Shown piece by piece: positions 14,664 through 33,830 of a DNA stretch of 64,000 nt. Made by a program: the position numbers and the translations under genes. Every line of letters begins with the position of its first letter. Positions within the stretch are counted from its first letter, which is position 1. The stretch spans positions 78,369 through 142,368 of the forward strand of contig DATGIZ010000014.1 in assembly GCA_035295465.1 (NCBI GenBank), written 5' to 3'. Origin of the DNA: Candidatus Binatia bacterium (GTDB lineage Bacteria > Desulfobacterota > Binatia > DP-6). The notes below the pieces were generated by a model that was not told the DNA's origin, made no database searches, and saw nothing but the letters and a program-made list of their open reading frames with translations.

Positions 14664-14800
14664 GCTCGCCTCCTCGCCGTCCGACCGCGGGGCGATCGTG
14701 CCCGACCCCGACGGTGACGCTTTCGTTGTGGCAAATCCCGCGCGCCTTGGCGAGTCCGGTCCTCGCGGGACGCGCGTTCCGGCCGGCCTCCGGTCGCCGA

Positions 14801-16174
14801 TCAGCGCGCGGCGGCCGCGATCTCGACCGGCCGGACGCGCACCGCGAGCGGCTCCTGGAGCATCGCCAACGCCTGCGCCTCGTCGCCGGGCCGGTAGGGG
14901 CTCGGCAGCACCACCAGCGACGCGTCGATACGGTACGCCCCGGGCTGCAGGTTCGTCATGCGCAGCAGGCGATAGCCGGCGCCGCGGTCGGGGGCGTCGT
15001 TGGCTGCGGCCGCGTCGGCGAAGACCGTCCCGCGCGTGATGCCCCACGTCCGCCACGCCTCCGGAATGCGCAGCGTCTGGAGCACGGTGCCCGCGGGACC
15101 GCTCACCACCCACCACTCGTGATCCCGCTCGGCTCCCGCTGGACCGTCCCGGGCGCCGAGCGGGACGCCGTCGGGGTTGGCGGCGTCCCAGTAGCGCATG
15201 TCGGCCGCGGCCGCGCCGAAATCGTCGAGCGTCTCGAAGCGGAAGGCGCGCAACGATCGCAGGGCGAGCGCGGGGATCGAGAACGTCGACGGCGTCACGA
15301 ACGAGCTGAAGTAGTAGTACGTCGACACGGTCCCGTTGGGGATCTCCGGGAACAACGGTCCGAGGTCGAGCGCCTGGCGCACGCGGCGCACGGCGCGCAC
15401 CGGGCCGTTCTTGACGCCCTCGGTGGTCACCGAGAAGCTCTCCTCGGTGAAGGTGGGCGCCCAGGTCGTGATTAGCAGCGAGAAGGTCGGATTGATGCGC
15501 ATCAGCATCCGCCGCACCAGCTCCTCACCGCTGCCGCCGGCCGCAGGGCTCACGCGCACGCCGGCGAGGAAGTTGCTGCGATCGCGGGAGTAGCGCACCT
15601 CGTAGTAAAGGGCCCGCGCCTCGCCGCGCGCGGTGTCGAACACCGCATAGCGCACCGGCGAGCGCGGCGGCGGCTCGCCCGGAAAATGCGCGACGTACAC
15701 CCAGCCCCGCCCGCCGCGCGCGCCGTCCTCGACCTCGATCTCGAACACCGCGTCGCTCGCGTCGGGGAGCCGGTCCGCGCCGATCCGGTCGCCCGCGTCC
15801 TTGGCCATGAACACCAGCTCATCGTCGTCGTCGAACGTGAAGTCGCCCTCGGCTCCCTCGCCGGACAGCACCAGCTCGCCGCCCGCGTCGCGCGCGTCGA
15901 ACTGGAAGGGGATCGCCTCGAGCACGCCGCCGCGCGCCGCGTAGACCCGATAGCGCGCCGTGCGGTGGTCGGGGAGGGCGGCGAGCAGGCCCGTGCGCAC
16001 GACCACCGGATCGTGGAAGCGCGTGAGCGTCTTCGCCTCGCCCGCCGGCGACCGAGCGGCCGCCGGCATCCCGAGCACGAGCGCGCCGAGCGAGGCGAGG
16101 ACGAGCGCGCGCGGGCGCGCCGCCCGCCGCGCGCCCGCGCCGCCCGCTTGCCCGCTGCACGATCGCCGCGTCAT
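14801..16174 (-). CDS. hypothetical secreted protein
   Basis: 457 aa ORF with clear signal peptide (ALVLASLGALVLGMPAAARS); no recognisable catalytic motifs. Confidence 0.55.
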   Translation of the reverse strand: MTRRSCSGQAGGAGARRAARPRALVLASLGALVLGMPAAARSPAGEAKTLTRFHDPVVVRTGLLAALPDHRTARYRVYAARGGVLEAIPFQFDARDAGGELVLSGEGAEGDFTFDDDDELVFMAKDAGDRIGADRLPDASDAVFEIEVEDGARGGRGWVYVAHFPGEPPPRSPVRYAVFDTARGEARALYYEVRYSRDRSNFLAGVRVSPAAGGSGEELVRRMLMRINPTFSLLITTWAPTFTEESFSVTTEGVKNGPVRAVRRVRQALDLGPLFPEIPNGTVSTYYYFSSFVTPSTFSIPALALRSLRAFRFETLDDFGAAAADMRYWDAANPDGVPLGARDGPAGAERDHEWWVVSGPAGTVLQTLRIPEAWRTWGITRGTVFADAAAANDAPDRGAGYRLLRMTNLQPGAYRIDASLVVLPSPYRPGDEAQALAMLQEPLAVRVRPVEIAAAAR

Positions 16175-16274
16175 CGCGCCGTGCTCCGTCGGCCCGCGAT
16201 GATGCGCCGGTCGGGCGTGCGCCGTCCATCACGTTCGACCGGGCCGACACCATGCGCGGCGCCGTGCCCTCCGC

Positions 16275-16838
16275 TCAGATCCAGGACTCCTTGAGGCCGA
16301 GGCCGTATCCGGCGGCGGTCACGGCAACGGAGCCGACGCCCACGAGCGGCGCCGCCAGCAGCGTCGGAACCAGGGGCGGCACGACGAGCGGTGCGACGCA
16401 GACGTACGCGCCGACGAGGAAGTCGAGCTGATCGAACGGGATCCAGGGCGCGCCCGGCGGGATGCCGACCCGCCGCTTGAAGAACGACTTGACCGCGTCG
16501 CCGAGGCCGGCGCCGAGCCCGAGCAGAACCCCGGGCAGCGGATCGACGACCCGGTAGTCGACGAGCGCGAGGTCGCGCAGGACCCCGTGCTCGTGGAGCG
16601 CGGCCTGCGCGGCGTAGACGATTGCGCCGGCGATGATGCCCGCGAGCAGCCCGCGCCACGTCTTGTGATCACCGAGCACACGGACGCCGCCGAGCGTCCA
16701 CCCCGCGTCCATCGGCCGCGCGAGCGCTGCGAAATGACCCTGCACGAGGACCGGGGCCATGTTCGCCACGTAGGCGGGCACGAAGAAGTAGAGAGCCCGG
16801 AGCAGCGCGGCGCCCGATCCCCCCATCGGCGTGGCCAC
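16275..16838 (-). CDS. CDP-archaeol synthase family protein (CarS/DUF46, CTP-transferase-like membrane protein)
   Basis: 187 aa, 5-6 TM; conserved KTWRG and FKRRxGxxxGxxxxxFDQLD cytidylyltransferase motifs. Confidence 0.6.
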   Translation of the reverse strand: MATPMGGSGAALLRALYFFVPAYVANMAPVLVQGHFAALARPMDAGWTLGGVRVLGDHKTWRGLLAGIIAGAIVYAAQAALHEHGVLRDLALVDYRVVDPLPGVLLGLGAGLGDAVKSFFKRRVGIPPGAPWIPFDQLDFLVGAYVCVAPLVVPPLVPTLLAAPLVGVGSVAVTAAGYGLGLKESWI

Positions 16839-16954
16839 CGCATGCTACCGGCCCTGCAACCGGCGTACCGCCCTCCACTGCGGGCCCGCGGTGCACCGCC
16901 TCGTCGGATTCCTTCATGGTGGCTTGCTTTTCGTGAACGATGCTGGCGCCGCCT

Positions 16955-16978
16955 GGCCTTCCCACCGGCCGGAAGGCC
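16955..16978. promoter_or_regulatory. perfect palindrome GGCCTTCC-N8-GGAAGGCC in the divergent region upstream of the decaheme gene
   Basis: 8-bp arms with GC-rich 8-nt spacer, about 100 nt upstream of ATG 17081. Confidence 0.3.
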
Positions 16979-17080
16979 CCTGCCGGGGGGTTGCCAATCA
17001 CGAGACGACACGGCGAAAAAGCCAGGCGGCACGGCTCAGCACGCCGAGTGCATACGTTCCAGCAGGGAAGGGGGACGCTG

Positions 17081-19885
17081 ATGGACGCGCGCGCACGCTG
17101 GCTCTCATCCGCCGGGACGCTCCTGCTCGCTTCGCTCCTCGCCGTCGACGCCACCGCCGGCCCGATCGCGGTGGTCACGGGCGGGGGGGCGAAACGCAAC
17201 GACTGCCTCGCGCAGATGGACGCGAGCGGGGTCGCGTTCCCCACGGGCCGGGCGCCGAAGGGCGCCTCCTGCGCCGACGGGGACGCCTGCGACCAGGACG
17301 GCGTGCGCAACGGGGTCTGCCGGTTCTCGGTCTCGATCTGCGTGAACCAGCACGGGGCGCGGTGCGCCCCGGGCAAGATCACCGGCCTCAAGCTGCGGCG
17401 GGCGCGCGGCGTCGGGGACATCGCCGCGCTCCAGGCCGCCCTCGCCCAGCTCGCGCTGCCGACGAGCCAGACGGAATGCACGGCGCCGGCCGACGTCGCG
17501 GTGCCCACGGGCGGGCTCGACGCCAAGGGCCAACCGCGCAAGGGCTTCCTCGATCTGCGCCTGCGGGCGCGCGGCCCGGGCCGCGTCGACCAGAACCGCT
17601 TCCTGCTGACCTGCGTCCCGACCACGGTGGGCGGGGGCCCCGGGGTGCCGTCCACCACGAGCACCACGACGAGCACGACCCTGCCGCCGGTGGCGGGCAC
17701 CCCCGGGGCGGGCCTCCAGGCGAGCATCCTCGCCGCGGCGGTGAGCCCGGCGGGCGTGGTCACCGTCACCTTCCAGCTCACCGACGGCGCCGGGGTGCCG
17801 ATCGCGCCGACGACCGCGGCGACGGCCGATCCGGCCAAGGCCCGCGTCCGCTTCACGCTCGCCCACCTCGACGTCGACACCTCGACCGTCGAGGGTCTCA
17901 CCGCGACCTTCACGCGGTACCGCAACTACGTCCTCACCACGCAGACGAGCCCGATCACCCACGCGTCGTCGATGCAGCCGACGTATGACACCAAGGGCAC
18001 GTTCGCGGCGGTCGACGCGGCGGGAACGTACACTTACACGTTCGCGACGGTGCTCCCGTCGGGCTTCCCCGCCGCCGAGACCCACACGGTGGGCGCGCAG
18101 GTGGAGCGCGCCTTCGGCGGCCAGACGCTGGTCGCGAACCCGATCTTCGACTTCGTGCCGAACGGCGGAGCGGTCACCACCACCCGCGAGGTCGCGACCA
18201 CGGCCGAGTGCAACACCTGCCACGGGCGCCTCGAGGCGCACGGCGGCGGCCGGCGCGAGGTCCGTCTCTGCCAGCTCTGCCACACCGACCAGGCGGTCGA
18301 CCCCGACACCGGCAACACGATCGACTTCAAGGTGATGATCCACAAGATCCACCGCGGCGCCGACCTGCCCTCGCTCGCGGGCCTCATCACCAAGTACTCG
18401 ATCATCGGCTTCCAGCAGTCCGAGACGATCTTCGGCCAAGACGTACAGACGTGCGTCGGGGGGCCCGTGGCCTCGATGCCGTGCACGACCGACATGGACT
18501 GCCAGGGCGGCACCTGCACCGGCCAGGCGACCACGGGCGTCGGCTTCCCGCGCGACCTCCGCGACTGCCAGGTCTGCCACACCCAGGGCGCGGACGCGGC
18601 GAACTTCAAGCAGAAGCCGTCGGCTCCGGCCTGCCAGTCGTGCCACGACGACGTGAATCCGGGGACGGCGAACATCGTGGTGCAGCTCCAGACGATCACC
18701 GCCGGGACCAACCACCTCCCGGGCGCGCAGCCCGACGCGCTCTGTCAGGTCTGCCACACCGCGAACACGCCGACGCTGCCCGGCGGCGCCTTCCCCGAGT
18801 TCGGGATCGGCGTGCTCCAGGCGCACACGAACCCGGCGCGGTCGCTCCAGCTCCAGGGGCTCAAGGCGACCATCGTGAGCGCGTCGGGAACGCCGGGCGG
18901 CGCGGTCACCATCGGGTTCAAGATCACCGACGGCGCAGGCAACGCCTTCAACAAGGCGAGCGCGTGCGCGCTCGGGCGCATCGCGTTCGCGATCAGCGGC
19001 CCGTCGACCGACTTCGGCGGGAGCTCCGTGCCGCTGCTCACCCCGTCGGTCACGCTCGGGGGCTCCTGCGTGCTGAGCGACCCCGACGCCAACGGCGTGT
19101 TCACCTACATAACGTCGGGCGCGAACCTCCTCCCGGTCGACGCCATGGGCACGTGGCGCGTGGGCATGGAGGTGCGTCACAGCGTGAACGTGCTCCAGCC
19201 GAGCCCGAACCCGCCGATCGCGGTCAACGAGGCCGCCCAGAATCCCGTGTTCGACTTCAGCGTCGACGGCTCACCGGTCGTCCCGCGGCGCGACGTGGTC
19301 GCCATCACGAACTGCCAGAAGTGCCACGGCGTGTTCTCGCAGGGCTTCAGCATCCACGGGAACCTTCGCAACCAGACCGAGTACTGCGTGATCTGCCACA
19401 ACCCGAACGAGAGCGACTTCCCGACGCGCGCGCCGGCGGTCGCCGGCGGCGCCAGCGTGAACGACCAGCCGATCGTGCTGAAGCACCTGATCCACCGCAT
19501 CCACACCGGCGCCCAGCAGGAGAACCAGCCCTACATCGTCTACGGCTTCGGCTCGACGCCGATCGACTTCAGCGAGATCCTCTACCCGAACGACCGGCGG
19601 CGGTGCGACGCCTGTCACCTGAGCGGCACGCAGCTCCTGCCGCTGCCCGCCGGGCTGCTCCCGACGCGGCTCACGAAGGTCGACACCTCGATGACGCCGG
19701 CGGTCGAGACCACCATCGGCTCGATCCCGCCGATCCAGGACGCGTGCCTCGCCTGCCACGACGCCGACGACGCCAGGGCACACGCGGTCACGATGACGGC
19801 GCCCGACGGCACCGAGGCGTGCAACGTCTGCCATCAGGAGGGCGCGCTCGAGCCCGTGTCGGCGGCGCACGCGATCGAGCCCTGA
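17081..19885 (+). CDS. MtrC/OmcA-family decaheme c-type cytochrome with N-terminal Cys-rich domain and Thr-rich linker
   Basis: 934 aa from MDARARWLSSAGTLLLASLL (signal peptide; RBS GAAGGGGGA); ten CxxCH motifs arranged 5+5 (CNTCH,CQLCH,CQVCH,CQSCH,CQVCH / CQKCH,CVICH,CDACH,CLACH,CNVCH) separated by non-haem domains; TTSTTTSTT linker. Confidence 0.9.
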   Translation: MDARARWLSSAGTLLLASLLAVDATAGPIAVVTGGGAKRNDCLAQMDASGVAFPTGRAPKGASCADGDACDQDGVRNGVCRFSVSICVNQHGARCAPGKITGLKLRRARGVGDIAALQAALAQLALPTSQTECTAPADVAVPTGGLDAKGQPRKGFLDLRLRARGPGRVDQNRFLLTCVPTTVGGGPGVPSTTSTTTSTTLPPVAGTPGAGLQASILAAAVSPAGVVTVTFQLTDGAGVPIAPTTAATADPAKARVRFTLAHLDVDTSTVEGLTATFTRYRNYVLTTQTSPITHASSMQPTYDTKGTFAAVDAAGTYTYTFATVLPSGFPAAETHTVGAQVERAFGGQTLVANPIFDFVPNGGAVTTTREVATTAECNTCHGRLEAHGGGRREVRLCQLCHTDQAVDPDTGNTIDFKVMIHKIHRGADLPSLAGLITKYSIIGFQQSETIFGQDVQTCVGGPVASMPCTTDMDCQGGTCTGQATTGVGFPRDLRDCQVCHTQGADAANFKQKPSAPACQSCHDDVNPGTANIVVQLQTITAGTNHLPGAQPDALCQVCHTANTPTLPGGAFPEFGIGVLQAHTNPARSLQLQGLKATIVSASGTPGGAVTIGFKITDGAGNAFNKASACALGRIAFAISGPSTDFGGSSVPLLTPSVTLGGSCVLSDPDANGVFTYITSGANLLPVDAMGTWRVGMEVRHSVNVLQPSPNPPIAVNEAAQNPVFDFSVDGSPVVPRRDVVAITNCQKCHGVFSQGFSIHGNLRNQTEYCVICHNPNESDFPTRAPAVAGGASVNDQPIVLKHLIHRIHTGAQQENQPYIVYGFGSTPIDFSEILYPNDRRRCDACHLSGTQLLPLPAGLLPTRLTKVDTSMTPAVETTIGSIPPIQDACLACHDADDARAHAVTMTAPDGTEACNVCHQEGALEPVSAAHAIEP

Positions 19886-19898
19886 TCGAGGAGGGGCC

Positions 19899-20990
19899 AT
19901 GGAAGGCCGGAGCTGGCTCGCAGGCGAGCTGGAGGCGCGGGGCGTCTCGCGGCGGGAGTTCCTGGCGTTCTGCGCGGCGACCGCCTCCACGCTCGCGCTC
20001 TCGCGCACGTTCGTCCCGCGGATCGCCGAGGCCATCGAGCGCGGGGAGAAGCCCACGCTGGTGTGGCTCGAGTTCCAGGACTGCGCCGGCAACACCGAGT
20101 CGTTCCTGCGCGCCGGCCGCCCGACGGTGGCCGAGATCGTGCTCGACCTCCTCTCGGTGGACTACCATGAGACCCTGATGGCGGCCGCCGGGCACCAGGC
20201 GGAGGAGGCGCTGGCCAGGGCGATCCGCGACCATCAGGGGAGCTACATCGCGGTCGTCGAGGGCTCGATCCCGACCGGCGCCGACGGCGCCTACTGCACG
20301 ATCGGCGGCCGCGCCGCCCTCGACATCGCGCGTGAGGTGTGCGGCGGCGCCGCGGCGACGATCGCCATCGGAACCTGCGCGACCTTCGGCGGCCTGCCCG
20401 CGGCGGCGCCGAACCCGACCGGGGCGCTCGGCGTCGCCGACGCGGTGCCGGGGCTCAGCACGCTGATCAACCTCTCCGCCTGCCCGGCGAACGTCGAGAA
20501 TCTCACCGCGCTCGTCGTCTACCACCTGACCTTCAAGCGCTGGCCGCCGCTCGACCGCTACCGCCGCCCGCTGTTCGCCTACGGGGTGGCGATCCACGAC
20601 GCCTGCGAGCGGCGCGCCCACTTCGACGCCGGGCACTACGTGGAGGCGTGGGGCGACGAGGCGCACCGCGCCGGCTACTGCCTCTACAAGATGGGCTGCA
20701 AGGGACCCGTGACGTTCCAGAACTGTCCCAAGGTGCGCTGGAACGAGGGGACGAACTGGCCGATCGGCTGCGGGCACCCCTGCATCGGCTGCGCCGAGCC
20801 CGACTTCTGGGACAAGATGACGCCCTTCTACCGCCACCTCGCGGGCGTGCCGGGCTTCGGCCTCGGCTCCGACGTCGACCGCGTCGGCGCCCTCGCCGCC
20901 GCGGGCGTCGGCGCCGCCTTCGCCGCGCACGGGGTCGTGGCGGCGGCCAAGCGCTGGTGGGAGCGCAAGTCGGGCGGGGACGCCGCATGA
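19899..20990 (+). CDS. hyaA: [NiFe] uptake hydrogenase small subunit (group 1, Tat-exported)
   Basis: 363 aa; twin-arginine motif SRREFLAF; FeS cluster Cys ligands; C-terminal hydrophobic anchor; strong RBS GAGGAGGGG 13 nt after decaheme stop. Confidence 0.95.
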   Translation: MEGRSWLAGELEARGVSRREFLAFCAATASTLALSRTFVPRIAEAIERGEKPTLVWLEFQDCAGNTESFLRAGRPTVAEIVLDLLSVDYHETLMAAAGHQAEEALARAIRDHQGSYIAVVEGSIPTGADGAYCTIGGRAALDIAREVCGGAAATIAIGTCATFGGLPAAAPNPTGALGVADAVPGLSTLINLSACPANVENLTALVVYHLTFKRWPPLDRYRRPLFAYGVAIHDACERRAHFDAGHYVEAWGDEAHRAGYCLYKMGCKGPVTFQNCPKVRWNEGTNWPIGCGHPCIGCAEPDFWDKMTPFYRHLAGVPGFGLGSDVDRVGALAAAGVGAAFAAHGVVAAAKRWWERKSGGDAA

Positions 20991-22693
20991 CGCACGTCGT
21001 CGTCGATCCGGTCACCCGCATCGAAGGCCATCTGCGGATCGAGGCCGAGGTCGACGGCGGCGCGGTGCGCGACGCGTGGTCGTCGTCGACGATGTTCCGC
21101 GGCATCGAGATCATCTTGAAGGGGCGCGACCCGCGCGACGCGTGGGCGTTCACGCAGCGCATCTGCGGCGTCTGCACCACGGTGCACGCGATCGCCTCCA
21201 TCCGTGCGGTCGAGAACGCGATCGGCGCCGCGCCGCCGCCGAACGCGCGGCTGCTGCGCAACCTCGTCATCGCCGCGCAATGCGTCCAGGACCACGTGAT
21301 CCACTTCTACCATCTCCACGCGCTCGACTGGGTGGACCTCGTCTCCGCGCTCGGCGCCGATCCGGCGAAGACCGGCGCGCTCGCGCAGTCGCTCTCCGAC
21401 TGGCCCCTCTCGAGCGCGCGCTACTTCGCCGGGGTGCGTGATCGGCTGAAGGGGCTCGCCGCGAGCGGGCGGCTCGGGCCGTTCGCCAACGCCTACTGGG
21501 GGCATCCGGCCTACCGGCTGCCCCCGGAGGCGAACCTGCTCGCGGTCGCGCACTATCTCGAGGCGCTCGAGTGGCAGCGCGAGTTCATCAAGATGCACGC
21601 GGTGCTCGGCGGGAAGAACCCCCATCTCCAGAGCTTCCTCGTCGGCGGCATGGCCACGCCCGTGGATCCCGACCAGCAGGCCTCGCTCAACGCGGGCACG
21701 ATCGCGACGCTGCACGAGCTGGTCGCCAAGGCGCGCGATTTCGTCACCCGCGTCTACCTTCCCGACCTGCTGGCGATTGCGGCCGCCTACAAGGACTGGG
21801 CGGGATACGGCGCAGGCGTCGGCAACTACCTCGCCTACGGGGAGTACCCCGACGACGACGGCCCCGCGCCGGCGCTCTTCCTGCCCGGAGGCGTGATCCG
21901 TGGCCGCGACCTCGGGCGGGTCGGGCCGGTGGACCCCGAGCGAATCACCGAGCAGGTGAAGCACTCGTGGTACGAGTACGCCGACGGGGACGACCGCGGC
22001 CTGCACCCCGCGCGCGGCGAGACCCGCCCGCGCTACACGGGGCCGAAGCCCCCGTACGAGCGCCTCGACGTCGCGGGCAAGTATAGCTGGCTCAAGTCGC
22101 CGCGCTACGGCGACGAGCCCATGGAGGTCGGGCCCCTCGCCCGCATGCTGGTGGCTTACGCCTCGGGGCACACCCGCGTGCGCGCGCTCGTGGACGGAGC
22201 GCTGCGCCAGCTCGGGGTGGGCCCCGAGGCCCTGTTTTCCACGCTCGGGCGCGTGGCCGCCCGCGGCATCGAGACGCAGCTCATCGCCGAGAAGATGGGC
22301 GACTGGCTCGACGGCCTCGCGGCGAACATGGCGCAGCGCGACCTCCGCATCCACGACAACGCCAGGTGGGAGCCGCAGACGTGGCCGCGCGACTGCACGG
22401 GCGCCGGCTTCCACGAGGCCCCGCGCGGCGCCCTCGGCCATTGGGTCCACATTCACGACGGCGCGATCGCGAACTACCAGTGCATCGTGCCGAGCACGTG
22501 GAACGCCGGGCCGCGCGACGCGGCCGGGCGGCGCGGGCCCTACGAGGCGGCGCTCGTCGGCACGCCGGTGGCCGATCCCGCCCAGCCGCTCGAGATCCTG
22601 CGCACCGTGCACTCCTTCGACCCGTGCATGGCCTGCGGCGTGCACGTCGTCGACCCCGAGCGCCGCGAGCTGGCGCACGTGAGGATCGCGTGA
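20987..22693 (+). CDS. hyaB: [NiFe] uptake hydrogenase large subunit
   Basis: 568 aa; ATG overlaps hyaA stop (ATGA); L1 motif RICGVCTTVH and L2 motif DPCMACGVH with short C-terminal extension for endopeptidase cleavage. Confidence 0.95.
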   Translation: MTHVVVDPVTRIEGHLRIEAEVDGGAVRDAWSSSTMFRGIEIILKGRDPRDAWAFTQRICGVCTTVHAIASIRAVENAIGAAPPPNARLLRNLVIAAQCVQDHVIHFYHLHALDWVDLVSALGADPAKTGALAQSLSDWPLSSARYFAGVRDRLKGLAASGRLGPFANAYWGHPAYRLPPEANLLAVAHYLEALEWQREFIKMHAVLGGKNPHLQSFLVGGMATPVDPDQQASLNAGTIATLHELVAKARDFVTRVYLPDLLAIAAAYKDWAGYGAGVGNYLAYGEYPDDDGPAPALFLPGGVIRGRDLGRVGPVDPERITEQVKHSWYEYADGDDRGLHPARGETRPRYTGPKPPYERLDVAGKYSWLKSPRYGDEPMEVGPLARMLVAYASGHTRVRALVDGALRQLGVGPEALFSTLGRVAARGIETQLIAEKMGDWLDGLAANMAQRDLRIHDNARWEPQTWPRDCTGAGFHEAPRGALGHWVHIHDGAIANYQCIVPSTWNAGPRDAAGRRGPYEAALVGTPVADPAQPLEILRTVHSFDPCMACGVHVVDPERRELAHVRIA

Positions 22694-23448
22694 CCACCGC
22701 GGCGCTCGCCGCCGAGCCGGCGCCCCCGGGCACGGAGCTCGTCCGCGTGTACGTCTGGGAGCTGCCCGTGCGCGTCACGCACTGGCTGATCGTGCTCTCG
22801 ATCGTGGTGCTCTCGGTCACGGGCCTCTACATCGGTCATCCCTTCCTCGTCGTCACCGGGCCGTCGAGCGGGCGCTTCGTCATGGGCACGATGCGGGTCG
22901 TCCACCTCTACGCGGGCATCGTCTTCGGGCTGGCGGTGCTGGCGCGGATAGTCTGGATGTTCACCGGCAACACCTATGCCCGCTGGGACAAGCTCCTCCC
23001 TGTCCGCCACCGGCGCCGGCAGGGCATCCTGCCGACGATCGCCTTCTACCTCTTCGCGCTGCGCAAGCCGCCGGGCTTCGTCGGTCACAACCCGGTGGCC
23101 GGCCTCGCCTACGTCGCGGTCTTCCTGATCTACTTCGTCGAGATCACCACCGGGCTCACGCTCCACGCGGCCGCCGCGCACTTGGGATCGCCGCTGCGCG
23201 CGTTCGCCGCGCTCGCTCCCTTTTTCGGCGGGCTGCAGACGGCCCGCTGGATCCACCACGTGGGCATGTGGCTGCTGATCGGTTTCGCCATCCACCACGT
23301 GTACAGCTCGGTGCTCATGTCGGTGGTCGAGGCGAACGCGACCGTCGAGTCCATGTTCTCGGGGTACAAGTTCGTCCCGCGCGAGGATCTCGTCTACTCC
23401 GGGTACCGCTTCATCGACCGCCGGGACGCCCGGGACGGCGATGGATGA
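22690..23448 (+). CDS. hyaC: Ni/Fe-hydrogenase b-type cytochrome subunit
   Basis: 252 aa; GTG overlaps hyaB stop (GTGA); 4 TM helices with conserved His (VTHWLIVLSI, VVHLYAGIVFG, IHHVGMWLL, IHHVYS). Confidence 0.9.
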   Translation: MTTAALAAEPAPPGTELVRVYVWELPVRVTHWLIVLSIVVLSVTGLYIGHPFLVVTGPSSGRFVMGTMRVVHLYAGIVFGLAVLARIVWMFTGNTYARWDKLLPVRHRRRQGILPTIAFYLFALRKPPGFVGHNPVAGLAYVAVFLIYFVEITTGLTLHAAAAHLGSPLRAFAALAPFFGGLQTARWIHHVGMWLLIGFAIHHVYSSVLMSVVEANATVESMFSGYKFVPREDLVYSGYRFIDRRDARDGDG

Positions 23449-23989
23449 GGCGGCGGCGCTCCTCGTGCTCGGGCTCGGCAACGTGCTCCTCGGCGACGAT
23501 GGGCTCGGCGCCGCGGCCGTCCACCGGCTGTCCCGCGACTTCGTGGCGCCCCCGGCGGCGCGCGTCCTCGACGGCGGGACGCTCGGCCTGGCGCTCCTGC
23601 CCCACCTCGAGGACGCGCGCGCGGCGATCCTCGTCGATGCGGTCCGCGGCGACGCGCCGCCGGGCACGCTCGTCCGGCTCGCCGGCGACGCCGTGGCCCC
23701 CGCGGTCCTCGAGCGGCTCTCCCCGCATCAGGTGGGGGTGGCCGACCTGCTGCAGGGCGCGCGTTGGCGGGGCCGGTGCCCCCCGGCGCTGGTCTTGATC
23801 GGCCTCGTGCCGGCCGCCATCGACCTCGGCCTCGGGCGGTCCCCGGCGGTGGACGCGGCGCTCGGCCGGCTCGTGGCGCAGATCGTGGCCGAGGCCCGGG
23901 CCTTCGGCCACCACTTCCGGCCGAGACGGGACGATGAGAGGGCTCTTGACGGGAGCGCTCGTGACGTGGCTCGCATCCTCGGGCTGTAG
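23441..23989 (+). CDS. hyaD: hydrogenase maturation endopeptidase (HyaD/HupD/HybD family)
   Basis: 182 aa; LVLGLGNVLLGDDGLG N-terminal signature of hydrogenase maturation protease. Confidence 0.9.
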   Translation: MDEAAALLVLGLGNVLLGDDGLGAAAVHRLSRDFVAPPAARVLDGGTLGLALLPHLEDARAAILVDAVRGDAPPGTLVRLAGDAVAPAVLERLSPHQVGVADLLQGARWRGRCPPALVLIGLVPAAIDLGLGRSPAVDAALGRLVAQIVAEARAFGHHFRPRRDDERALDGSARDVARILGL

Positions 23990-24338
23990 CGGCGGCGACC
24001 GCGACCTGCCGGCGATCTACCGGCGGTTGCCCGTTCCCGCGGCGCGCCTCGCCTCCCCGGCCGCGCGCCGGCGGGGGGCCGCCCTCTTCGCCGAGCACTG
24101 CGCCCTCTGCCACGGCGAGCGCGGCGACGGGCGAGGCGTGCGTCACGAGGGCCTCTCGACCGCACCGCGCGACTTCACCGATCCCGCCTGGCAGCAGCGG
24201 ACGTCTCCGCGGCGGGCCTTCTTCGCGATCCGCGAGGGCGTGCCGGGGACGGCCATGCCGTCCTGGCGGGCACTCGACGACGCGCAGACGTGGGACCTCG
24301 TCGCCCGGGTGCTGTCGTTCGGCGGTCCGAGGTCGTGA
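23934..24338 (+). CDS. monoheme class I c-type cytochrome, probable lipoprotein
   Basis: 134 aa; signal/lipobox-like LASSGCSG; single CALCH haem motif with downstream Met (GTAMPSW); start may be a later TTG/GTG. Confidence 0.65.
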   Translation: MRGLLTGALVTWLASSGCSGGDRDLPAIYRRLPVPAARLASPAARRRGAALFAEHCALCHGERGDGRGVRHEGLSTAPRDFTDPAWQQRTSPRRAFFAIREGVPGTAMPSWRALDDAQTWDLVARVLSFGGPRS

Positions 24339-26620
24339 TGCAGGCGGGGCGCCGCATCGAGATCCGTGGGACGGTCCAGGGCGTCGGCTTCCGTCCCTGG
24401 GTGCTGCGCCTCGCGCGTGCGGCGGGCGTCGCCGGACGCGTCCGCAACGACCCGGGAGGCGTCACCATCGAGGCGTTCGCGGCCGCGGGCGTGCTCGACG
24501 CGTTCTACCGCCGGCTGCTCGAGGCGCCCCCGCCCGGCGCCGCCATCCTCGACGTCGCCACACGCGACATCCCAGGCGAGGCGGCGGCGTACTTCGTCAT
24601 CGAGCCGAGCGTCGCAGCGGCCGCCGGGCGCCGCCTCTCGATCCCCCCCGATCTCGCCACCTGCCCCGACTGCCTGCGCGAGCTCGACGACCCCGCCGAC
24701 CGGCGGTACCGCTACGCGTTCATCAACTGCACGCGCTGCGGCCCGCGGTTCACGATCGCGCGGGACGTCCCGTACGACCGCCGGGCGACCACGATGGCGG
24801 CCTTCCACATGTGCGCGGCGTGCCGGCGCGAGTACGAGTCGCCCGCCGACCGGCGCTTCCACGCGCAGCCGAACGCCTGCCCCGCCTGCGGGCCGCGGCT
24901 GCGGCTGGCCACCGCCGCCGGGGCGCCCGTCGCCTCTGCCGACCCGATCCGCGCGGCGGCGGCGGCGCTCGCCGCCGGCCGCGTCGTGGCCGTCAAGGGC
25001 CTCGGCGGCTTCCACCTCGCCTGCGACGCGACCTCGGGGCCCGCCGTCGCGCGCCTGCGCGCGCGTAAGCGCCGCGACGCCAAGCCGTTCGCGGTGATGG
25101 TCCGGGACCTCGCGCGCGCCGAGCGCCTCGCCCGGCTCGACGACGCGGAGCGGGCGCTTCTCGCCTCGGTCGAGCGGCCCATCGTGCTCGTGCCCCGGCG
25201 GCCGGACGCGGACGTCGCCGCCGAGGTCGCGCCCGGAAGCCCGCTGCTCGGCGTCTTCCTCCCGTACACGCCGCTCCATCACCTGCTGCTCGCGGCCGTG
25301 GACCGCCCGCTGGTCATGACGTCGGCCAACCTGAGCGACGAGCCGATCGTCCACCGTGACGCCGAAGCGGCCCGGCGCCTCGCGCCGATCGCGGACTTGA
25401 TCCTCGGTCACGACCGGGCGATCGCGACGCCCTGCGAGGACTCGGTCGCCCGCGTGATCGCCGGACGGCCCGTGGTGCTACGGCGCGCGCGGGGCTGGGT
25501 TCCCCGGGCGCTTGCCCTGCCGCGGCCCTTCGCGCGTCCGGTGCTCGCCTGCGGCGCCGATTTGAAGAGCGCTGCGTGCGTCGGCGTCGACGCCGCCGCC
25601 TACCTCGGACCGCAGACCGGCGACCTCGCCGATTTGGCCACGCTGCGGGCCTTCGAGGAGTCGGTCGAGCGGCTGCTGCATCTGCTGCGTGTCGTGCCGG
25701 AGGTGGTCGCCTGCGACCTCCACCCCGGCTACCGCTCGACGGCCTATGCGCGCGCGCGGCGGGCGGCCACGATCGTCGCCGTCCAGCACCACCACGCCCA
25801 CGTCGCGAGCGCGATGGCCGAGCACGGCCTTTCGGGACCCGTTCTCGGCGTCGCGTACGACGGGACGGGCTACGGCACCGACGGCGCGGCGTGGGGCGGC
25901 GAGCTGCTGCTCGCCGACTACGTCCGCTTCGAGCGGCTGGCGACGTTCCGGCCGCTCGCGCTCGCCGGCGGCGACGCCGCGATCCGCCAGGTGTGGCGCC
26001 TCGCGCTGGCCGCCCTCGACGACGCGTTCGGCGGCGAGGTGTCGCTCGCCGGCCTGCCGCTGTTCGCCCGCATCCCGGCGCGCGACGTCGCGGTCGTGCG
26101 CCAAATGATCGCCGCCGGCCTCAACGCGCCCCGGGCGCACGGCGTCGGCCGCTGGTTCGACGCCCTCGGCGCGCTCGTCCTCGGACGGGCCGCGGCGCGC
26201 TACGAGGGCGAGGTCGCGGCCGCCTGGAACCTGGCAGCCGATCCCGCCGATCGCGCGCGCTATCCGTTCGCGGTCGACCTGAGCGGCGTGCCCTGGGCGG
26301 TCGACCTGCGGCCGCTCGTGCGCGCCGCGGTCGCCGACCTGCTCGGCGGACGCCCGGCCGGGGCGATCTCCGCCCGCTTCCACAACACGCTGGTGGCGGC
26401 GACGGCCGAGGTGGTGCGCGCGGCAGCAGCCCGGCACGGCCGCCTGCCCGTCGTGCTGACGGGCGGCTGCTTCCAGAACCCGCGCCTGGCCGAGGGCGTG
26501 ATCGCCGCGCTCGGCTCCGGGCACACGGTCTACCTCCATGGCGCGATCCCGCCCGGCGACGGCGGCATCGCGCTCGGGCAGGCGCTGGTCGCCGACGCGA
26601 GGGTGCGCGCATGTGCCTAG
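24338..26620 (+). CDS. hypF: [NiFe]-hydrogenase maturation carbamoyltransferase
   Basis: 760 aa; acylphosphatase domain (IRGTVQGVGFRPWV), two Zn-finger CxxC pairs (CPDC...CTRCGPR; CAAC...CPACGPR), YrdC and Kae1-like domains. Confidence 0.95.
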   Translation: MQAGRRIEIRGTVQGVGFRPWVLRLARAAGVAGRVRNDPGGVTIEAFAAAGVLDAFYRRLLEAPPPGAAILDVATRDIPGEAAAYFVIEPSVAAAAGRRLSIPPDLATCPDCLRELDDPADRRYRYAFINCTRCGPRFTIARDVPYDRRATTMAAFHMCAACRREYESPADRRFHAQPNACPACGPRLRLATAAGAPVASADPIRAAAAALAAGRVVAVKGLGGFHLACDATSGPAVARLRARKRRDAKPFAVMVRDLARAERLARLDDAERALLASVERPIVLVPRRPDADVAAEVAPGSPLLGVFLPYTPLHHLLLAAVDRPLVMTSANLSDEPIVHRDAEAARRLAPIADLILGHDRAIATPCEDSVARVIAGRPVVLRRARGWVPRALALPRPFARPVLACGADLKSAACVGVDAAAYLGPQTGDLADLATLRAFEESVERLLHLLRVVPEVVACDLHPGYRSTAYARARRAATIVAVQHHHAHVASAMAEHGLSGPVLGVAYDGTGYGTDGAAWGGELLLADYVRFERLATFRPLALAGGDAAIRQVWRLALAALDDAFGGEVSLAGLPLFARIPARDVAVVRQMIAAGLNAPRAHGVGRWFDALGALVLGRAAARYEGEVAAAWNLAADPADRARYPFAVDLSGVPWAVDLRPLVRAAVADLLGGRPAGAISARFHNTLVAATAEVVRAAAARHGRLPVVLTGGCFQNPRLAEGVIAALGSGHTVYLHGAIPPGDGGIALGQALVADARVRACA

Positions 26621-26907
26621 GGGTGCCCGGCCGGGTCGTGGCCGTCGACGGCGACGTCGCCACCGTCGACTTCTGGGGCGTCCGCCGGCCGGTGCGGCTC
26701 GACGTGGTCGACGAAGCGGTGGCGCCCGGCGACTACGTGCTCAACCACGTCGGCTTCGCGATCCGGCGCATCCCACCGCAGGAGATCGCCGAAACCCTCG
26801 CGCTCTACGAGACGCTGCTCGCCGCCGCCGACGGCGACCTCATGGCCGCCGACGTGCGCGGCGAGGTCGCCGGCGCCGGGCGAAGGGACGACCGTGGACG
26901 CTCCTGA
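26611..26907 (+). CDS. hypC: hydrogenase assembly chaperone
   Basis: 98 aa starting MCLGVPG (canonical HypC N-terminus MC[LI][GA][IV]P); overlaps hypF 3' end. Confidence 0.85.
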   Translation: MCLGVPGRVVAVDGDVATVDFWGVRRPVRLDVVDEAVAPGDYVLNHVGFAIRRIPPQEIAETLALYETLLAAADGDLMAADVRGEVAGAGRRDDRGRS

Positions 26908-28036
26908 GCCGCGCGCCCTCCGGCCGCTCGAGTTCCGCGATCCCGCGCGCGCCCGCGCGCTCGCCGAGGCGCTCGGCCGGCTCACGCGCGCGATCGGACG
27001 CGCTCCCGTGGCGGTCATGCACGTGTGCGGGAGCCACGAGCAGGCGATCGCGCGCTTCGGCCTGCGGGCGTCCTTCCCGCGCGACCTCGAGGTCATCATG
27101 GGCCCGGGCTGCCCGGTGTGCATCACGGACGTCCCCGAGGTGGACGAGGCCGTGGCGCTCGCGCTCGGTGGCGTGCGCGTCGCGACCTACGGGGACATGC
27201 TGCGGGTGCGCGGCACCTCCCGCTCGCTCGCCGACGCGCAGGCCGACGGTGCGCGGGTCGACGTGGTCTACGGCGTCGCGCAGGCCGTCGAGCTGGCGCG
27301 CCGGCGCGACGAGGAGGTCGTCTTCTTCGCCACCGGGTTCGAGACCACCGCGGTGGCCACCGCCGCGGCCCTGCTCGCCGGCCCGCCGCCCAACTTCTCG
27401 GTGCTCTCGGCGCACAAGTACATCCCCCCGGTGATGGAGATCGTGGCCGAGATGCCCGCGACGCGCGTCGAGGGATTCCTCGCCGCCGGGCACGCCGCCA
27501 CGATCACCGGCTGGGGGATCTTCGAGCCGTTCGTCGCCCGCCACCGCCTGCCGGTGGTGGTCGCGGGCTTCGAGCCGCTCGACATCCTCGCCGGCCTGGT
27601 GCGCCTGCTCGAGCTGGTGCGCGACGGCCGGCCCGCGGTGGTGAACGCGTACCCGCGCTGCGTCACCCGCGAGGGGAACCGGCGCGCGCAGGCGCTCCTC
27701 TGGAAGGTGTTCCGTCCGGTCGGCGGGCGGTGGCGGGGGATCGCACACGTGCCCAACGGGAACCTCCGCCTGCGCGACGCCTTCGCGCACGCCGACGCCC
27801 GGCGCCGCTTCCGCGTCGACGCCGCGCGGCTGTGGGACGGGGCGCCGGCTGCGCTCGTCGCCGAGTGCCGCTGCGGCGACATCATGGCCGGCATCGCCCG
27901 TCCGGCGGACTGCGCGCTCTTCGGCCGGCGCTGCACGCCCGAGGAGCCGGTCGGCGCCTGCATGGTGAGCACGGAGGGGACTTGCCGCATCTGGCACGAG
28001 TACGGCGGGCACCCGCAGCTCGGGGCGGCTTCATGA
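26894..28036 (+). CDS. hypD: hydrogenase maturation factor
   Basis: 380 aa; conserved GPGCPVC, GFETT and CxxC...C motifs of HypD. Confidence 0.95.
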   Translation: MDAPEPRALRPLEFRDPARARALAEALGRLTRAIGRAPVAVMHVCGSHEQAIARFGLRASFPRDLEVIMGPGCPVCITDVPEVDEAVALALGGVRVATYGDMLRVRGTSRSLADAQADGARVDVVYGVAQAVELARRRDEEVVFFATGFETTAVATAAALLAGPPPNFSVLSAHKYIPPVMEIVAEMPATRVEGFLAAGHAATITGWGIFEPFVARHRLPVVVAGFEPLDILAGLVRLLELVRDGRPAVVNAYPRCVTREGNRRAQALLWKVFRPVGGRWRGIAHVPNGNLRLRDAFAHADARRRFRVDAARLWDGAPAALVAECRCGDIMAGIARPADCALFGRRCTPEEPVGACMVSTEGTCRIWHEYGGHPQLGAAS

Positions 28037-29061
28037 GGACGGGGAGCGAGCGGATCACGCTCCGCCACGGCGCGGGCGGCCGGGCCATGCGGGCGCTCAT
28101 CGAGGAGGTGTTCCTCGCCGGCCTCGAAGCCGATCCGCCCGGCGGCATCGGGCCGGCCGCCATGGACGACGGCGCGGCGCTGCGCCTCGGCGACCGCTGG
28201 CTCGTGGTCACCACCGACGCCCATGTGATCCAGCCCATCTTCTTCCCCGGCGGCGACATCGGGCGCCTCGCCGTGGCCGGCGCCGTCAACGACCTCGCGG
28301 TGATGGGCGCGACCGAGGTCCTCGCGCTCACCTGCGCCGTGGTGCTCGAGGAGGGCTTCCCCCGCGCCGACCTCGAGCGCATCGAGGCGTCGGTTCGCGC
28401 CGCCTGCGCGGACGCCGGCGCGACGATCGTGACCGGCGACACCAAGGTGATGGGACGCGGCGAGATCGACGGCGTCGTGCTCAGCACGACCGGCGTCGCG
28501 CTCACCGACCGGCCCGTGCCCGACCGCGGCCTCGCGCCCGGCGACCTCCTCCTGGTCACCGGCACGATGGGCGACCACGGCCTCGCCGTCCTCGCCGCGC
28601 GCCATGCTCTCGACCTCGAGGGCGAGCTCCGCTCCGATGTCGCCCCGATCAACGGCGTCGTCCGGTGCGCGCTCGCCGCCGGGGGCGATGATGTCGTGGC
28701 CATGAAGGATCCGACGCGCGGCGGGCTCGCGAGCGCGCTCCACGAGATGGCCGCCAAGAGCGGCGTCGGCATCGTGCTCGACGAGCAGGCGGTTCCCGTG
28801 ACGCCCGCCGTGCGGGCGGCGGCGGAGCTGCTCGGCATCGACCCGCTGCACGTCGCGAACGAGGGCAAGGCCGTGCTCGGCATCCGCGCGGACGCCGCGG
28901 AGCGCGTGCTCGCCGCCGTCCGTGCGCATCCGCTCGGCCGCGACGCCCGGATCGTCGGGCGCTGCGTCACGGAGCAGGTCGGCCGCGTCGTGCTCGACAC
29001 GGGCTTCGGCCGGCGCCTCCTCGCCGAGCCGGAGGGCGAGGTCCTCCCGCGCATATGCTGA
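28033..29061 (+). CDS. hypE: hydrogenase maturation carbamoyl dehydratase
   Basis: 342 aa; ATG overlaps hypD stop (ATGA); AIR-synthase-like fold, C-terminal PRIC ending in the catalytic Cys. Confidence 0.95.
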   Translation: MRTGSERITLRHGAGGRAMRALIEEVFLAGLEADPPGGIGPAAMDDGAALRLGDRWLVVTTDAHVIQPIFFPGGDIGRLAVAGAVNDLAVMGATEVLALTCAVVLEEGFPRADLERIEASVRAACADAGATIVTGDTKVMGRGEIDGVVLSTTGVALTDRPVPDRGLAPGDLLLVTGTMGDHGLAVLAARHALDLEGELRSDVAPINGVVRCALAAGGDDVVAMKDPTRGGLASALHEMAAKSGVGIVLDEQAVPVTPAVRAAAELLGIDPLHVANEGKAVLGIRADAAERVLAAVRAHPLGRDARIVGRCVTEQVGRVVLDTGFGRRLLAEPEGEVLPRIC

Positions 29062-29897: not shown

Positions 29898-29901
29898 CAG
29901 C

Positions 29902-30947: not shown

Positions 30948-31005
30948 AGAACAGCGGCAGCCGGCGCCGTCGCACGGCCGGCGAGCTCGGAGAGGAGGAA
31001 ACGCG

Positions 31006-31353: not shown

Positions 31354-31361
31354 GCCTGGCG

Positions 31362-31382
31362 GCCCCCCGGCAGCCGGGGGGC
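31362..31382 (+). terminator. GC-rich hairpin after monoheme cytochrome c gene (GCCCCCCGG-cag-CCGGGGGGC)
   Basis: perfect 9-bp stem, 3-nt loop, 9 nt after stop of 31006..31353; no clean U-tract, so factor-independent termination is uncertain. Confidence 0.4.
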
Positions 31383-31403
31383 GTGACCGGCACTTCTCAT
31401 CAC

Positions 31404-33819: not shown

Positions 33820-33830
33820 CGATCCCTCCA

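Follow-up and report, generated by a model that had tools for sequence, protein, structure and literature searches.

The locus described here raises the question of where the electrons of hydrogen would go in a bacterium that carries the genes of an H2-oxidising enzyme directly behind the gene of a cytochrome of the cell-surface type. The DNA in question, 64,000 nucleotides (nt) from an uncultured soil bacterium, a member of Candidatus Binatia (assembly GCA_035295465.1, contig DATGIZ010000014.1), is referred to below as the window; its GC content is 67-77%. In the window, the gene of a decahaem cytochrome of the MtrC/OmcA type is followed by the genes of a group-1 [NiFe] uptake hydrogenase and of its Hyp maturation proteins. 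All elements of this arrangement named in an earlier note were located by reading of the open reading frames (ORFs) and by profile matches; the gene-family matches across the decahaem/hydrogenase region had E-values from 1e-20 to 1e-230 and are no chance pattern. According to the answer favoured below, to which about an even chance is given, electrons from H2 would enter the quinone pool via the cytochrome b subunit of the hydrogenase and would then pass through quinol-oxidising cytochromes and an Mtr-type conduit to the outside of the cell.

A respiratory island of about 25 kb spans 17081-42177, and a block of 11 kb with the hydrogenase and hyp genes is nested in the middle of it. The hydrogenase cassette most likely sits between a surface-type decahaem cytochrome and the inner-membrane and periplasmic feeders of an Mtr-type conduit. 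The identities of the genes, their order, tight spacing and nesting, and the recurrence of such a neighbourhood elsewhere, were observed directly. The first part of the island comprises the following features.

17081-19885, + strand: MtrC/OmcA-family decahaem cytochrome, long form, 934 amino acids (aa) (TIGR03507, PF22113, ten CXXCH motifs, fold)
19886-19898, + strand: spacer of 13 nt with the ribosome-binding site GAGGAGG for the small subunit, read from the sequence
19899-20990, + strand: [NiFe] hydrogenase small subunit with Tat signal and C-terminal membrane anchor (TIGR00391, 414.6 bits)
20987-22693, + strand: [NiFe] hydrogenase large subunit (PF00374, 766.8 bits; best match in the Protein Data Bank (PDB) 3myr_B, 732.6 bits)
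22690-23448, + strand: HyaC-type cytochrome b, the membrane quinone-reducing subunit (TIGR02125, 157.6 bits, cut-off 121.5; PF01292)
23441-23989, + strand: HyaD/HybD-type maturation endopeptidase (TIGR00072, 126.3 bits; PF01750)
23934-24338, + strand: monohaem class-I cytochrome c with a lipoprotein-like signal, …WLASSGC (PF13442, PF00034)
24338-26620, 26611-26907, 26894-28036 and 28033-29061, + strand: hypF, hypC, hypD and hypE, respectively (Pfam HypF domains, HypD, AIRS/AIRS_C)
29055-29897, + strand: enoyl-CoA hydratase/crotonase-family gene (PF00378, 163 bits)
29902-30243, + strand: hypA (PF01155)
30243-30947, + strand: hypB (TIGR00073, 245.9 bits; HypB profiles align to residue 281-283 of the 293-residue ORF)

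The succession of hyaB, hyaC, hyaD and the full hyp set after the decahaem and small-subunit genes had been proposed in the earlier note, and the ORFs and hidden Markov models (HMMs) agree with it. Two genes inside the block were absent from that description, namely the monohaem cytochrome c gene (23934-24338) and the enoyl-CoA hydratase-family gene (29055-29897).

The assignment of the decahaem cytochrome to the MtrC/OmcA type was borne out by the family HMM, by the haem pattern, and by the predicted fold and domain order. The ORF has an ATG start with GGGAAGGGGG just upstream, and its ten CXXCH motifs are arranged 5+5. The NCBIfam model of the OmcA/MtrC family (TIGR03507) scored 407.9 bits against a cut-off of 209.3, two stretches were matched by PF22113, which covers domains II/IV of MtrC/MtrF (157.5 bits), and the database entry for an identical protein carries the name 'OmcA/MtrC family decaheme c-type cytochrome'. 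By phmmer, similarity to MtrF (E 4e-19) and OmcA (E 2e-16) was found. The protein begins with a signal peptide of the signal peptidase I (SPase-I) type, followed by a Cys-rich beta domain of ~160 aa, a TTSTTTSTT linker, a beta domain, a pentahaem domain, another beta domain and another pentahaem domain. This duplicated half-structure accounts for a repeat of 84 nt within the gene (17710-17793 and 18856-18939, 74% identical). In an alignment of 29 homologues, ten proximal and ten further His residues were invariant or nearly invariant, as for bis-His ligation. An AlphaFold model built from the 29 homologues had predicted local distance difference test (pLDDT) values of ~85-95 in the beta domains (residues 210-370 and 595-730) and low values in the haem domains because it contains no haems. 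When the model was compared with the PDB by Foldseek, the top 15 matches were OmcA, MtrC, UndA and MtrF (E 3e-23 to 3e-13), with a probability of 1.0 and a target-normalised template modelling (TM) score of ~0.5. The best of these were OmcA 4lmh (E 3e-23) and MtrC 6qyc; 4lm8 and 3pmq were matched as well.

Inspection of the N-terminus and of the homologues revealed no lipobox Cys in the decahaem protein, the signal peptide of which ends in ...AVDATA, followed by GP. In all 20 long-form (~900-aa) homologues, the Cys-rich N-terminal domain replaces the lipobox. On visual inspection, several short-form (~725 aa) relatives seem to carry a lipobox-like Cys, after which comes a linker rich in Gly, Pro and Thr; none of these was flagged by the regular expression used. 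We infer that the Cys-rich domain stands in for the lipid anchor. This domain (17159-17640, residues ~27-185) contains eight invariant Cys in the motif GGG..R.DC … C.DGD.CD.DG…G.C.F….C.N and is followed by a Thr/Ser/Pro linker. Modelled alone, it had a mean pLDDT of 79.2, with values >88 in the folded core and lower values in the linker tail, and a search of its fold against the PDB gave nothing significant (best E 0.016). A further Cys-rich element, a four-Cys insertion in the first pentahaem domain (18500-18570, residues ~474-497, CxGGx5PCxxDxDCxxGTCTG), belongs to the consensus of the decahaem family and is missing from the aligned Shewanella MtrF. A conserved CX8C-type disulfide in domain III is a feature of the Shewanella clade; the two Cys residues in domain III of the window protein are ~37 residues apart, and the consensus of the 29 sequences holds no conserved pair.

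The strongest evidence on the role of the decahaem cytochrome came from related loci. With the decahaem alignment as query, 160 loci were detected in collections of genomes and metagenomes, and homologues of the island genes were sought in their flanks by tblastn with the island proteins. An MtrA-like gene was present in the flanks of 70 of 163 decahaem loci, and a porin-like gene, adjoining the MtrA-like gene, in those of 30; the corresponding counts were 37 for the NapC/NirT-like multihaem gene, 31 for the monohaem cytochrome c gene cytc2 and 12-13 for the Rieske/cytochrome b genes. In the closest homologues (49-58% identity), the genes follow one another on one strand in the order decahaem, MtrA, MtrB, which is the canonical mtrCAB order. 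These counts and this gene order favour a role of the decahaem cytochrome as the outer partner of a porin-cytochrome conduit over one as a periplasmic acceptor. Most likely it is the outer end of a conduit that would be fed from the quinone pool, and its predicted role is most likely the transfer of electrons, at the cell surface, to extracellular acceptors.

The remainder of the island contains candidates for the other parts of such a conduit.

31006-31353, + strand: periplasmic monohaem class-I cytochrome c, cytc2 (PF00034, 57.7 bits)
31471-32991, + strand: membrane-anchored NapC/NirT-like multihaem cytochrome, 506 aa (PF03264, 29.5 bits, cut-off 24.1, residues 113-194)
33831-35030 and ~35048-36290, - strand: two multihaem cytochromes of ~400 aa each (Pfam multihaem families; sub-threshold similarity to the DmsE family)
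36298-37808, - strand: cytochrome b of the bc/b6 type and Rieske iron-sulfur protein (PF00033, 163.7 bits; PF00355, 52 bits)
37818-39785, - strand: putative outer-membrane beta-barrel porin, MtrB/PioB-like and divergent, 655 aa, with signal peptide
40651-41694, - strand: MtrA/DmsE-like periplasmic multihaem cytochrome with signal peptide and 11 CXXCH motifs (TIGR03508, DmsE family, 56.8 bits, cut-off 192)
41755-42177, + strand: second monohaem cytochrome c of the cytc2 type, divergent from the MtrA-like gene (PF00034, 49.3 bits)

The NapC/NirT-like protein has six CXXCH motifs and one CX3CH motif, and hydrophobic N-terminal segments are seen in its translation. It does not show the tetrahaem architecture of ~190 aa, and the NrfH model scored 43.6 bits against a cut-off of 134.2 (E 2.9e-11); the protein is a candidate quinol dehydrogenase analogous to CymA. 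The Rieske protein and cytochrome b, together with the multihaem cytochrome encoded downstream of them, form a putative quinol:cytochrome c oxidoreductase. For the porin-like protein, the top Pfam match was MtrB_PioB, below threshold (E 0.0046); the same family was matched, again below threshold, in six of eight porin homologues (E 8e-5 to 0.03), and the C-terminus …RFNL resembles the ends …RFDF and …RFEF of several homologues. The MtrA-like and porin-like genes lie 18-22 kb downstream of the decahaem gene on the opposite strand, and the similarity of their products to Shewanella MtrA and MtrB is sub-threshold. The minus-strand operon (33831-41694) is convergent with cytc2 and the NapC/NirT-like gene, and the cytochrome c gene at 41755-42177 shares ~76-81% nucleotide identity with the cytc2 genes of two related loci, L083 and L084. 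The Rieske/cytochrome b genes were also observed to share one operon with the MtrA-like, porin-like and two multihaem genes, a combination that is found in L001, L083, L084, L087 and L163 too. It hints at a quinol oxidase of the bc type that would serve the conduit specifically.

In its most economical form, the path that these genes would provide consists of five steps. HyaAB, exported by the Tat system, would oxidise H2 in the periplasm, and the cytochrome b subunit would pass the electrons to the quinone pool. Quinol would then be re-oxidised by the NapC/NirT-like multihaem cytochrome (31471-32991), by the Rieske/cytochrome b/multihaem complex, or by both. Cytc2 and the two multihaem cytochromes of ~400 aa would carry the electrons to the MtrA-like cytochrome inside the MtrB-like porin, and the MtrC-like decahaem cytochrome would finally deliver them to an insoluble or extracellular acceptor, e.g., Fe(III) or Mn(IV) oxides or humic substances. 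Where the proteins reside, in which direction the electrons flow and what kind of acceptor receives them are, like the co-transcription considered below, what we infer from the sequence.

The donor end of this path is a complete membrane-bound hydrogenase with some unusual features. The small subunit carries the Tat motif SRREFL (TIGR01409, 19.6 bits, cut-off 16.7) and is most similar to 1h2a_S among PDB entries; the large subunit has RIEGH near its N-terminus and DPCMACGVH with a cleavable tail of 15 residues at its C-terminus, and the motif MCLGVPG of HypC is present in the product of 26611-26907. In residues ~51-67 of the small subunit (20049-20098), the sequence EFQDCAGNTES was found, in which the second Cys of the CxGC proximal-cluster motif is replaced by Asn (CxGN). 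Neither the four-Cys ligand set of the proximal [4Fe-4S] cluster (CxGC … C … C) nor the six-Cys proximal cluster of group 1d O2-tolerant hydrogenases is present in the small subunit. The form EFQDC(A/C)GN(T/S)ES was seen in all clade members examined, that is, in 11 aligned sequences and in nine loci (L163-L171). In the numbering of Hyd-1 and MBH, in which the supernumerary residues are Cys19 and Cys120, most of the members examined have Gly at position 19 (CAGN), and the CCGN variants have an extra Cys at position 18. Position 120 is also Gly (TCATFGG), and thus the small subunit is not of the six-Cys O2-tolerant type. The Cys133 of AYCTIGG was considered as the supernumerary Cys120 of O2-tolerant enzymes and was rejected on account of this Gly; the extra Cys in AYCTIGG is nevertheless a conserved feature of the small-subunit clade.

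This clade is very large and metagenomic, and the members related to the window small subunit at 76-83% identity are mostly JGI and ENA records. Its cassette has the order small subunit, large subunit, cytochrome b, HyaD and monohaem cytochrome c. The genomic context was studied in nine relatives with long contigs (L163-L171), in eight of which a homologue of the cassette cytochrome c directly follows HyaD; the lipoprotein-like cytochrome c is thus a conserved member of the cassette. The hyp and crotonase genes have the window order in L164, L165 and L168 and are placed elsewhere in L166, L169, L170 and L171. The crotonase gene lies between hypE and hypA in the window and after hypE in L164, L165, L166 and L168, and a Formyl_trans_N domain is encoded by a separate gene in L168 and by the gene called as HypE in L164. 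HypX is a maturation factor for the CO ligand under aerobic conditions; taken together, the crotonase gene and Formyl_trans_N resemble a split HypX, of which the crotonase may be the C-terminal half. In L165 (5107-9573) and L171 (4087-8662), a group-3-type hydrogenase with small and large subunits and FAD/NAD-binding and FeS subunits is encoded directly upstream of the group-1 cassette. No description of the CxGN motif, the cassette cytochrome c or the crotonase gene was found in the literature searched. Since 22 of the 33 Binatota hydrogenase sequences listed by Murphy et al. 2021 (PMC8262859) were classed as group 1f, a group described as polyphyletic and poorly studied (PMC6896113), the window enzyme probably belongs to HydDB subgroup 1f, an indirect assignment drawn from that census.

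These features bear on a path without quinone. In the earlier note, H2 oxidation was thought to be coupled directly to extracellular electron transfer, or the decahaem cytochrome to serve as a periplasmic acceptor. Direct wiring of this kind would lead from the hydrogenase to the cassette cytochrome c or to a periplasmic decahaem cytochrome, as between the Desulfovibrio hydrogenase and cytochrome c3. It would agree with the conservation of the monohaem cytochrome c in the cassette of eight of nine relatives, with the CxGN motif, owing to which the redox properties of the small subunit may differ from those of textbook enzymes, and with the lack of the lipoprotein anchor of Shewanella MtrC. However, the hydrogenase has its own quinone-reducing cytochrome b, the score of which exceeded the curated cut-off and the translation of which is coupled to that of the large subunit, its GTG start overlapping the large-subunit stop codon, and the small subunit retains its C-terminal membrane anchor. 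Direct coupling is further weakened by the presence of two candidate quinol oxidases and of the MtrA-like and porin-like genes in the island and by the mtrCAB order in the decahaem family. Long-form decahaems without a lipobox occur in the decahaem, MtrA, MtrB order too, and in fold and domain order the window protein agrees with the extracellular MtrC/OmcA clade. As the enzyme has kept both its cytochrome b subunit and the membrane anchor of its small subunit, direct transfer is considered the least likely of the rival explanations, with only a small chance of being correct.

The decahaem stop codon ends at 19885 and is followed by TCGAGGAGGGGCC (13 nt) and by the ATG of the small subunit at 19899, by which the coordinates of the 13-nt gap, with its strong ribosome-binding site before a Tat-signal small subunit, were confirmed. 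The scan found no terminator-like site at this junction, the folding energy of which was no better than that of shuffled sequence (z +0.7). Since the 13 nt leave no room and show no signal for a terminator between the decahaem and hydrogenase genes, their co-transcription is plausible. All gene junctions in 17081-30947 overlap or measure at most 13 nt, and one transcript from 17081 to at least 30947 is probable, as it would fit these junctions and the absence of a terminator or hairpin. Considering the 13-nt junction, the decahaem and hydrogenase/hyp genes would therefore share one probable transcript, and the donor and acceptor branches would be co-made. A GC-rich hairpin at 31356-31396 directly follows the cytc2 stop codon (dG -34.5 kcal/mol, z -3.0, equalled by one of 200 shuffles) and has only a weak U tract; it may mark the end of a transcript or stabilise the mRNA between cytc2 and the NapC/NirT-like gene. 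A motif of ~30 nt upstream of cytc2 (30919-30950; GTTTCCTGCGACCGGGCGATGCGATACAG in L081, L083 and L084) is conserved in four of four genomes and overlaps the end of hypB in the window; it could be a promoter or operator of cytc2 and the NapC/NirT-like gene. A scan of the whole window against Rfam gave zero matches.

Hydrogenase-Mtr neighbourhoods were found to recur independently in a few unrelated soil bacteria, with three hydrogenase clades and in differing gene orders (L109; L039/L077; L163; L164). In L109, a cytochrome c, the decahaem, hypA, hypB, a Hyb-type hydrogenase, hyaD and hypF are encoded on one strand, the hydrogenase genes being ordered small subunit, FeS subunit, NrfD subunit, large subunit. 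In L039 and L077 (Terriglobia), the hydrogenase operon consists of hypD, hypE, hypB, the small subunit, the large subunit, cytochrome b and hyaD, and a divergent arm carries MtrC, MtrA, a 751-aa protein, a three-domain cytochrome c, the NapC/NirT-like gene and hypF, so that hypF is co-oriented behind the Mtr genes. The small subunits of L039, L077 and L109 have the standard CTGC, which places them in hydrogenase clades other than that of the window. Two relatives of the window hydrogenase itself have Mtr-type neighbours: in L164, the hydrogenase of which is 80% identical, the genes of MtrC-like, MtrA-like and multihaem cytochromes, of a 653-aa protein and of a NapC/NirT-like cytochrome lie just upstream in the same orientation, and in L163, the genes of an 82% identical hydrogenase run divergently from those of NapC/NirT-like, multihaem, MtrA-like, MtrB_PioB and Rieske proteins. 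In L166, other multihaem genes lie 5-10 kb from the hydrogenase, and in the six further relatives there are none.

The closest relatives of the window show that the arrangement is not fixed. L081, L083 and L084 share 85-90% nucleotide identity with the window and are syntenic with it on both sides, and the whole hydrogenase block is absent from them: the decahaem gene is followed straight by cytc2 and the NapC/NirT-like gene in L083 and L084 and straight by the NapC/NirT-like gene in L081, which is without most of cytc2. Since the window is the outgroup to these three relatives, parsimony alone cannot decide between gain and loss of the block. The spacer between decahaem and cytc2 in the relatives aligns to window 30879-31010, a stretch that takes in the final ~68 nt of hypB. 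In L081, positions 8689-8795 correspond to window 30879-30946; this relic scored 43, compared with 19.3 +/- 2.9 for dinucleotide shuffles, none of 500 of which reached it, and the last ~68 nt of hypB were the best tile of the whole window against the L081 spacer. The relic translates to GGDGWLAQRAGQRGFLQR, its HypB counterpart being GVDGWLAWLGLQDRFPQR, and the segment is genuine HypB coding sequence, as it is covered by the HypB HMMs. The signal was weak in L083 (reached by 3 of 500 shuffles) and L084 (11 of 500). Because the L081 spacer keeps this relic of the hypB 3' end, insertion of the 11-kb block in the window lineage was set aside, and the block was probably lost in the relatives, not gained in the window. 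The nested arrangement would then be older than the split from the relatives without the block, and the favoured view is that it predates the clade of the window, L081, L083 and L084 and is dispensable. A search for repeats flanking the block gave only chance GC-rich matches and the internal duplication of the decahaem gene, and no mobile-element boundaries were seen. Two further blocks of the window are also missing from L083 and L084, which look like reduced versions of the window island: 14785-17037, upstream of the decahaem gene, which encodes a 457-aa protein without family match and a membrane protein similar to CDP-archaeol synthase (CarS-like), and 32994-35080, which holds the multihaem gene at 33831-35030. 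In sum, the MtrC/OmcA type, the tight adjacency and the unusual composition put forward in the earlier note stand; direct wiring is not supported, and L081, L083 and L084 show that the pairing of hydrogenase and decahaem is not stable.

Several of these and other results weigh against the quinone-linked path to the outside as the function of the locus. The hydrogenase-Mtr linkage is uncommon and was probably lost in the nearest relatives; it is facultative, given that L081, L083 and L084 keep the Mtr island without the hydrogenase. A group-1 hydrogenase was found near the decahaem in only 3 of the 160 loci (1.85 Mb of flanking DNA), and two of these, L039 and L077, may represent a single event. 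On the hydrogenase side, Mtr-type neighbours occur in two of the nine relatives and are absent from seven, which at the same time bears out the view that the composition of the window operon is unusual. The porin and MtrA assignments lie below curated thresholds, the direction of electron flow through Mtr-type conduits is not readable from sequence, and no promoter-like site was found in 17 kb, by a scan that is uninformative at 73% GC. Furthermore, a hydrogenase that reduces the general quinone pool needs no dedicated acceptor, two genes of the cassette, that of the conserved class-I cytochrome c and the possibly HypX-like crotonase gene, give a hint of use under aerobic conditions, and Binatota genomes are predicted to be those of aerobic respirers (PMC8262859).

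The last points lead to an alternative that we hold possible, if on the doubtful side. The cassette may be self-sufficient and mobile, supply electrons to the quinone pool at large, chiefly in the oxidation of H2 under aerobic or microaerobic conditions, and have lodged among respiratory genes by chance, the Mtr island working independently on organic electron donors. The cassette has its own cytochrome b, and in L165 and L167-L171 it recurs, with the same order and the same extra genes, in surroundings of an unrelated kind; the nearest relatives of the window retain the Mtr island after the probable loss of the cassette. The crotonase gene beside the hyp genes, and the pair of Formyl_trans_N and enoyl-CoA hydratase (ECH) genes in L168, resemble HypX, and the aerobic respiratory chain predicted for Binatota (PMC8262859) would suit this use. 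Chance lodging is harder to reconcile with a neighbourhood that recurs in at least four architectures and three hydrogenase clades, with hydrogenase genes nested within Mtr sets (hypF after the NapC/NirT-like gene in L039, the decahaem before hypA in L109), and with three group-1 large subunits in the 1.85 Mb of flanks, several-fold more than a rough expectation, by our own estimate, of at most 0.4. The translationally coupled junction of 13 nt also implies shared transcription of decahaem and hydrogenase genes.

The cytochromes at the far end of the island allow yet another explanation, which appears quite improbable. Electrons may flow inward from extracellular Fe(II), Mn(II) or reduced humics, as in MtoAB and PioAB, with the hydrogenase as a second lithotrophic donor; both donors would feed high-potential cytochromes c and a terminal oxidase in a 'lithotrophy island'. 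Cytc2, its paralogue at 41755-42177, the NapC/NirT-type gene and the Rieske/cytochrome b genes adjoin the MtrA-like and porin-like genes, a layout that, as generally described, mirrors MtoA-MtoB-MtoD-CymA of Sideroxydans. The porin gene of L163 has a precomputed Pfam match to MtrB_PioB, and inward flow would be in keeping with the prediction of Binatota as aerobes (PMC8262859). Nothing in the sequence fixes the direction of flow, however, and of the genes examined in the island (17081-42177), none was recognised as that of a terminal oxidase. A surface decahaem of the MtrC/OmcA type is, moreover, typical of outward systems and usually absent from Mto and Pio clusters.

The quinone-linked outward path has its closest parallels in well-studied organisms. 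In Shewanella, the hydrogenase can drive metal reduction with H2 through the quinone pool. The MtrCAB/CymA/HyaAB system of Shewanella oneidensis resembles the window island in its 5+5 surface decahaem with two beta-barrel domains, its periplasmic MtrA-type multihaem cytochrome, outer-membrane porin and NapC/NirT-family quinol dehydrogenase, and its group-1 uptake hydrogenase with cytochrome b. However, hydrogenase and mtr genes are at separate loci in Shewanella, whereas in the window the hydrogenase and hyp genes lie between the mtrC-like gene and the rest of the conduit. Unlike MtrC, the window decahaem has no lipobox and carries the ~160-aa Cys-rich N-terminal domain, which lacks a structural relative, and its sequence identity to MtrF and OmcA is low. 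The MtrA-like protein has 11 CXXCH motifs and the porin falls below the Pfam threshold; the candidate quinol dehydrogenase has 6+1 haem motifs and not the four of CymA, and the window adds a Rieske/cytochrome b complex.

Geobacter sulfurreducens couples Hyb-dependent H2 oxidation to Fe(III) reduction. Here too, a periplasmic group-1 hydrogenase feeds extracellular reduction via quinol-oxidising cytochromes and porin-cytochrome conduits, but the outer-membrane cytochromes are outside the MtrC/OmcA family and the hydrogenase genes lie outside the conduit cluster. With its Hyb-type hydrogenase, L109 is closer to this system than the window is. The periplasmic [NiFe] hydrogenase of Desulfovibrio is likewise paired with a multihaem c-type cytochrome, cytochrome c3, but it is without cytochrome b and reduces a soluble tetrahaem cytochrome directly, whereas the window enzyme keeps its cytochrome b and small-subunit anchor and has an extracellular-type decahaem as its neighbour. 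With the MtoAB-MtoD-CymA and PioAB systems, the island shares an MtrA-like cytochrome, a porin, a class-I monohaem cytochrome c and a NapC/NirT-type protein, and a shared Rieske/cytochrome b link is plausible; those clusters normally contain neither an MtrC-type surface decahaem nor a hydrogenase. The group 1f hydrogenases of Binatota (PMC8262859) are HyaABC-type uptake hydrogenases in Binatia, like that of the window, and the terms multihaem, decahaem and MtrC never occur in the main text of that paper.

All parts of the locus are of known kinds, namely the MtrC/OmcA family, a group-1 HyaABC hydrogenase and NapC/NirT-type cytochromes. What appears to be new is that a cluster of hydrogenase and hyp genes is nested within one of the Mtr type, that such nesting recurs in Binatia, Terriglobia and other metagenomic lineages with hydrogenases of different types, and the occurrence of a long-form decahaem with a Cys-rich domain in the place of the lipid anchor. 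Literature searches yielded no paper linking Mtr-type genes with hydrogenase clusters in Binatia or Acidobacteria.

A bolder proposal, which we consider rather unlikely, is that some uncultured soil Binatia and Acidobacteriota possess a dedicated, co-inherited module for electron transfer from H2 to the outside, with a co-transcribed hydrogenase and Mtr conduit. In the clade of the window, this hydrogenase would be a distinct type with the CxGN motif and a lipoprotein cytochrome c of its own. If this were true, soil H2 would directly drive the reduction of Fe/Mn minerals or humic substances, and part of the flow might run via the cassette cytochrome c into the periplasmic multihaem network, bypassing quinone.

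H2-driven metal reduction is physiologically well known in Shewanella and Geobacter, H2 is available as an electron donor everywhere in soil, and no exit of electrons from Gram-negative cells is better understood than Mtr-type conduits; in the model organisms, hydrogenase and Mtr conduit are encoded separately. The locus suggests that H2 may power the reduction of minerals outside the cell in this Binatia bacterium. Recurrent nesting in uncultured, globally common soil lineages would point to hydrogenotrophic respiration of minerals or humic substances outside Shewanella and Geobacter. It would also draw attention to a large hydrogenase clade, abundant in soil, that has a cytochrome c of its own and a proximal-cluster motif of an atypical kind, and the nested locus would serve as a concrete marker for metatranscriptomic tests of such respiration.

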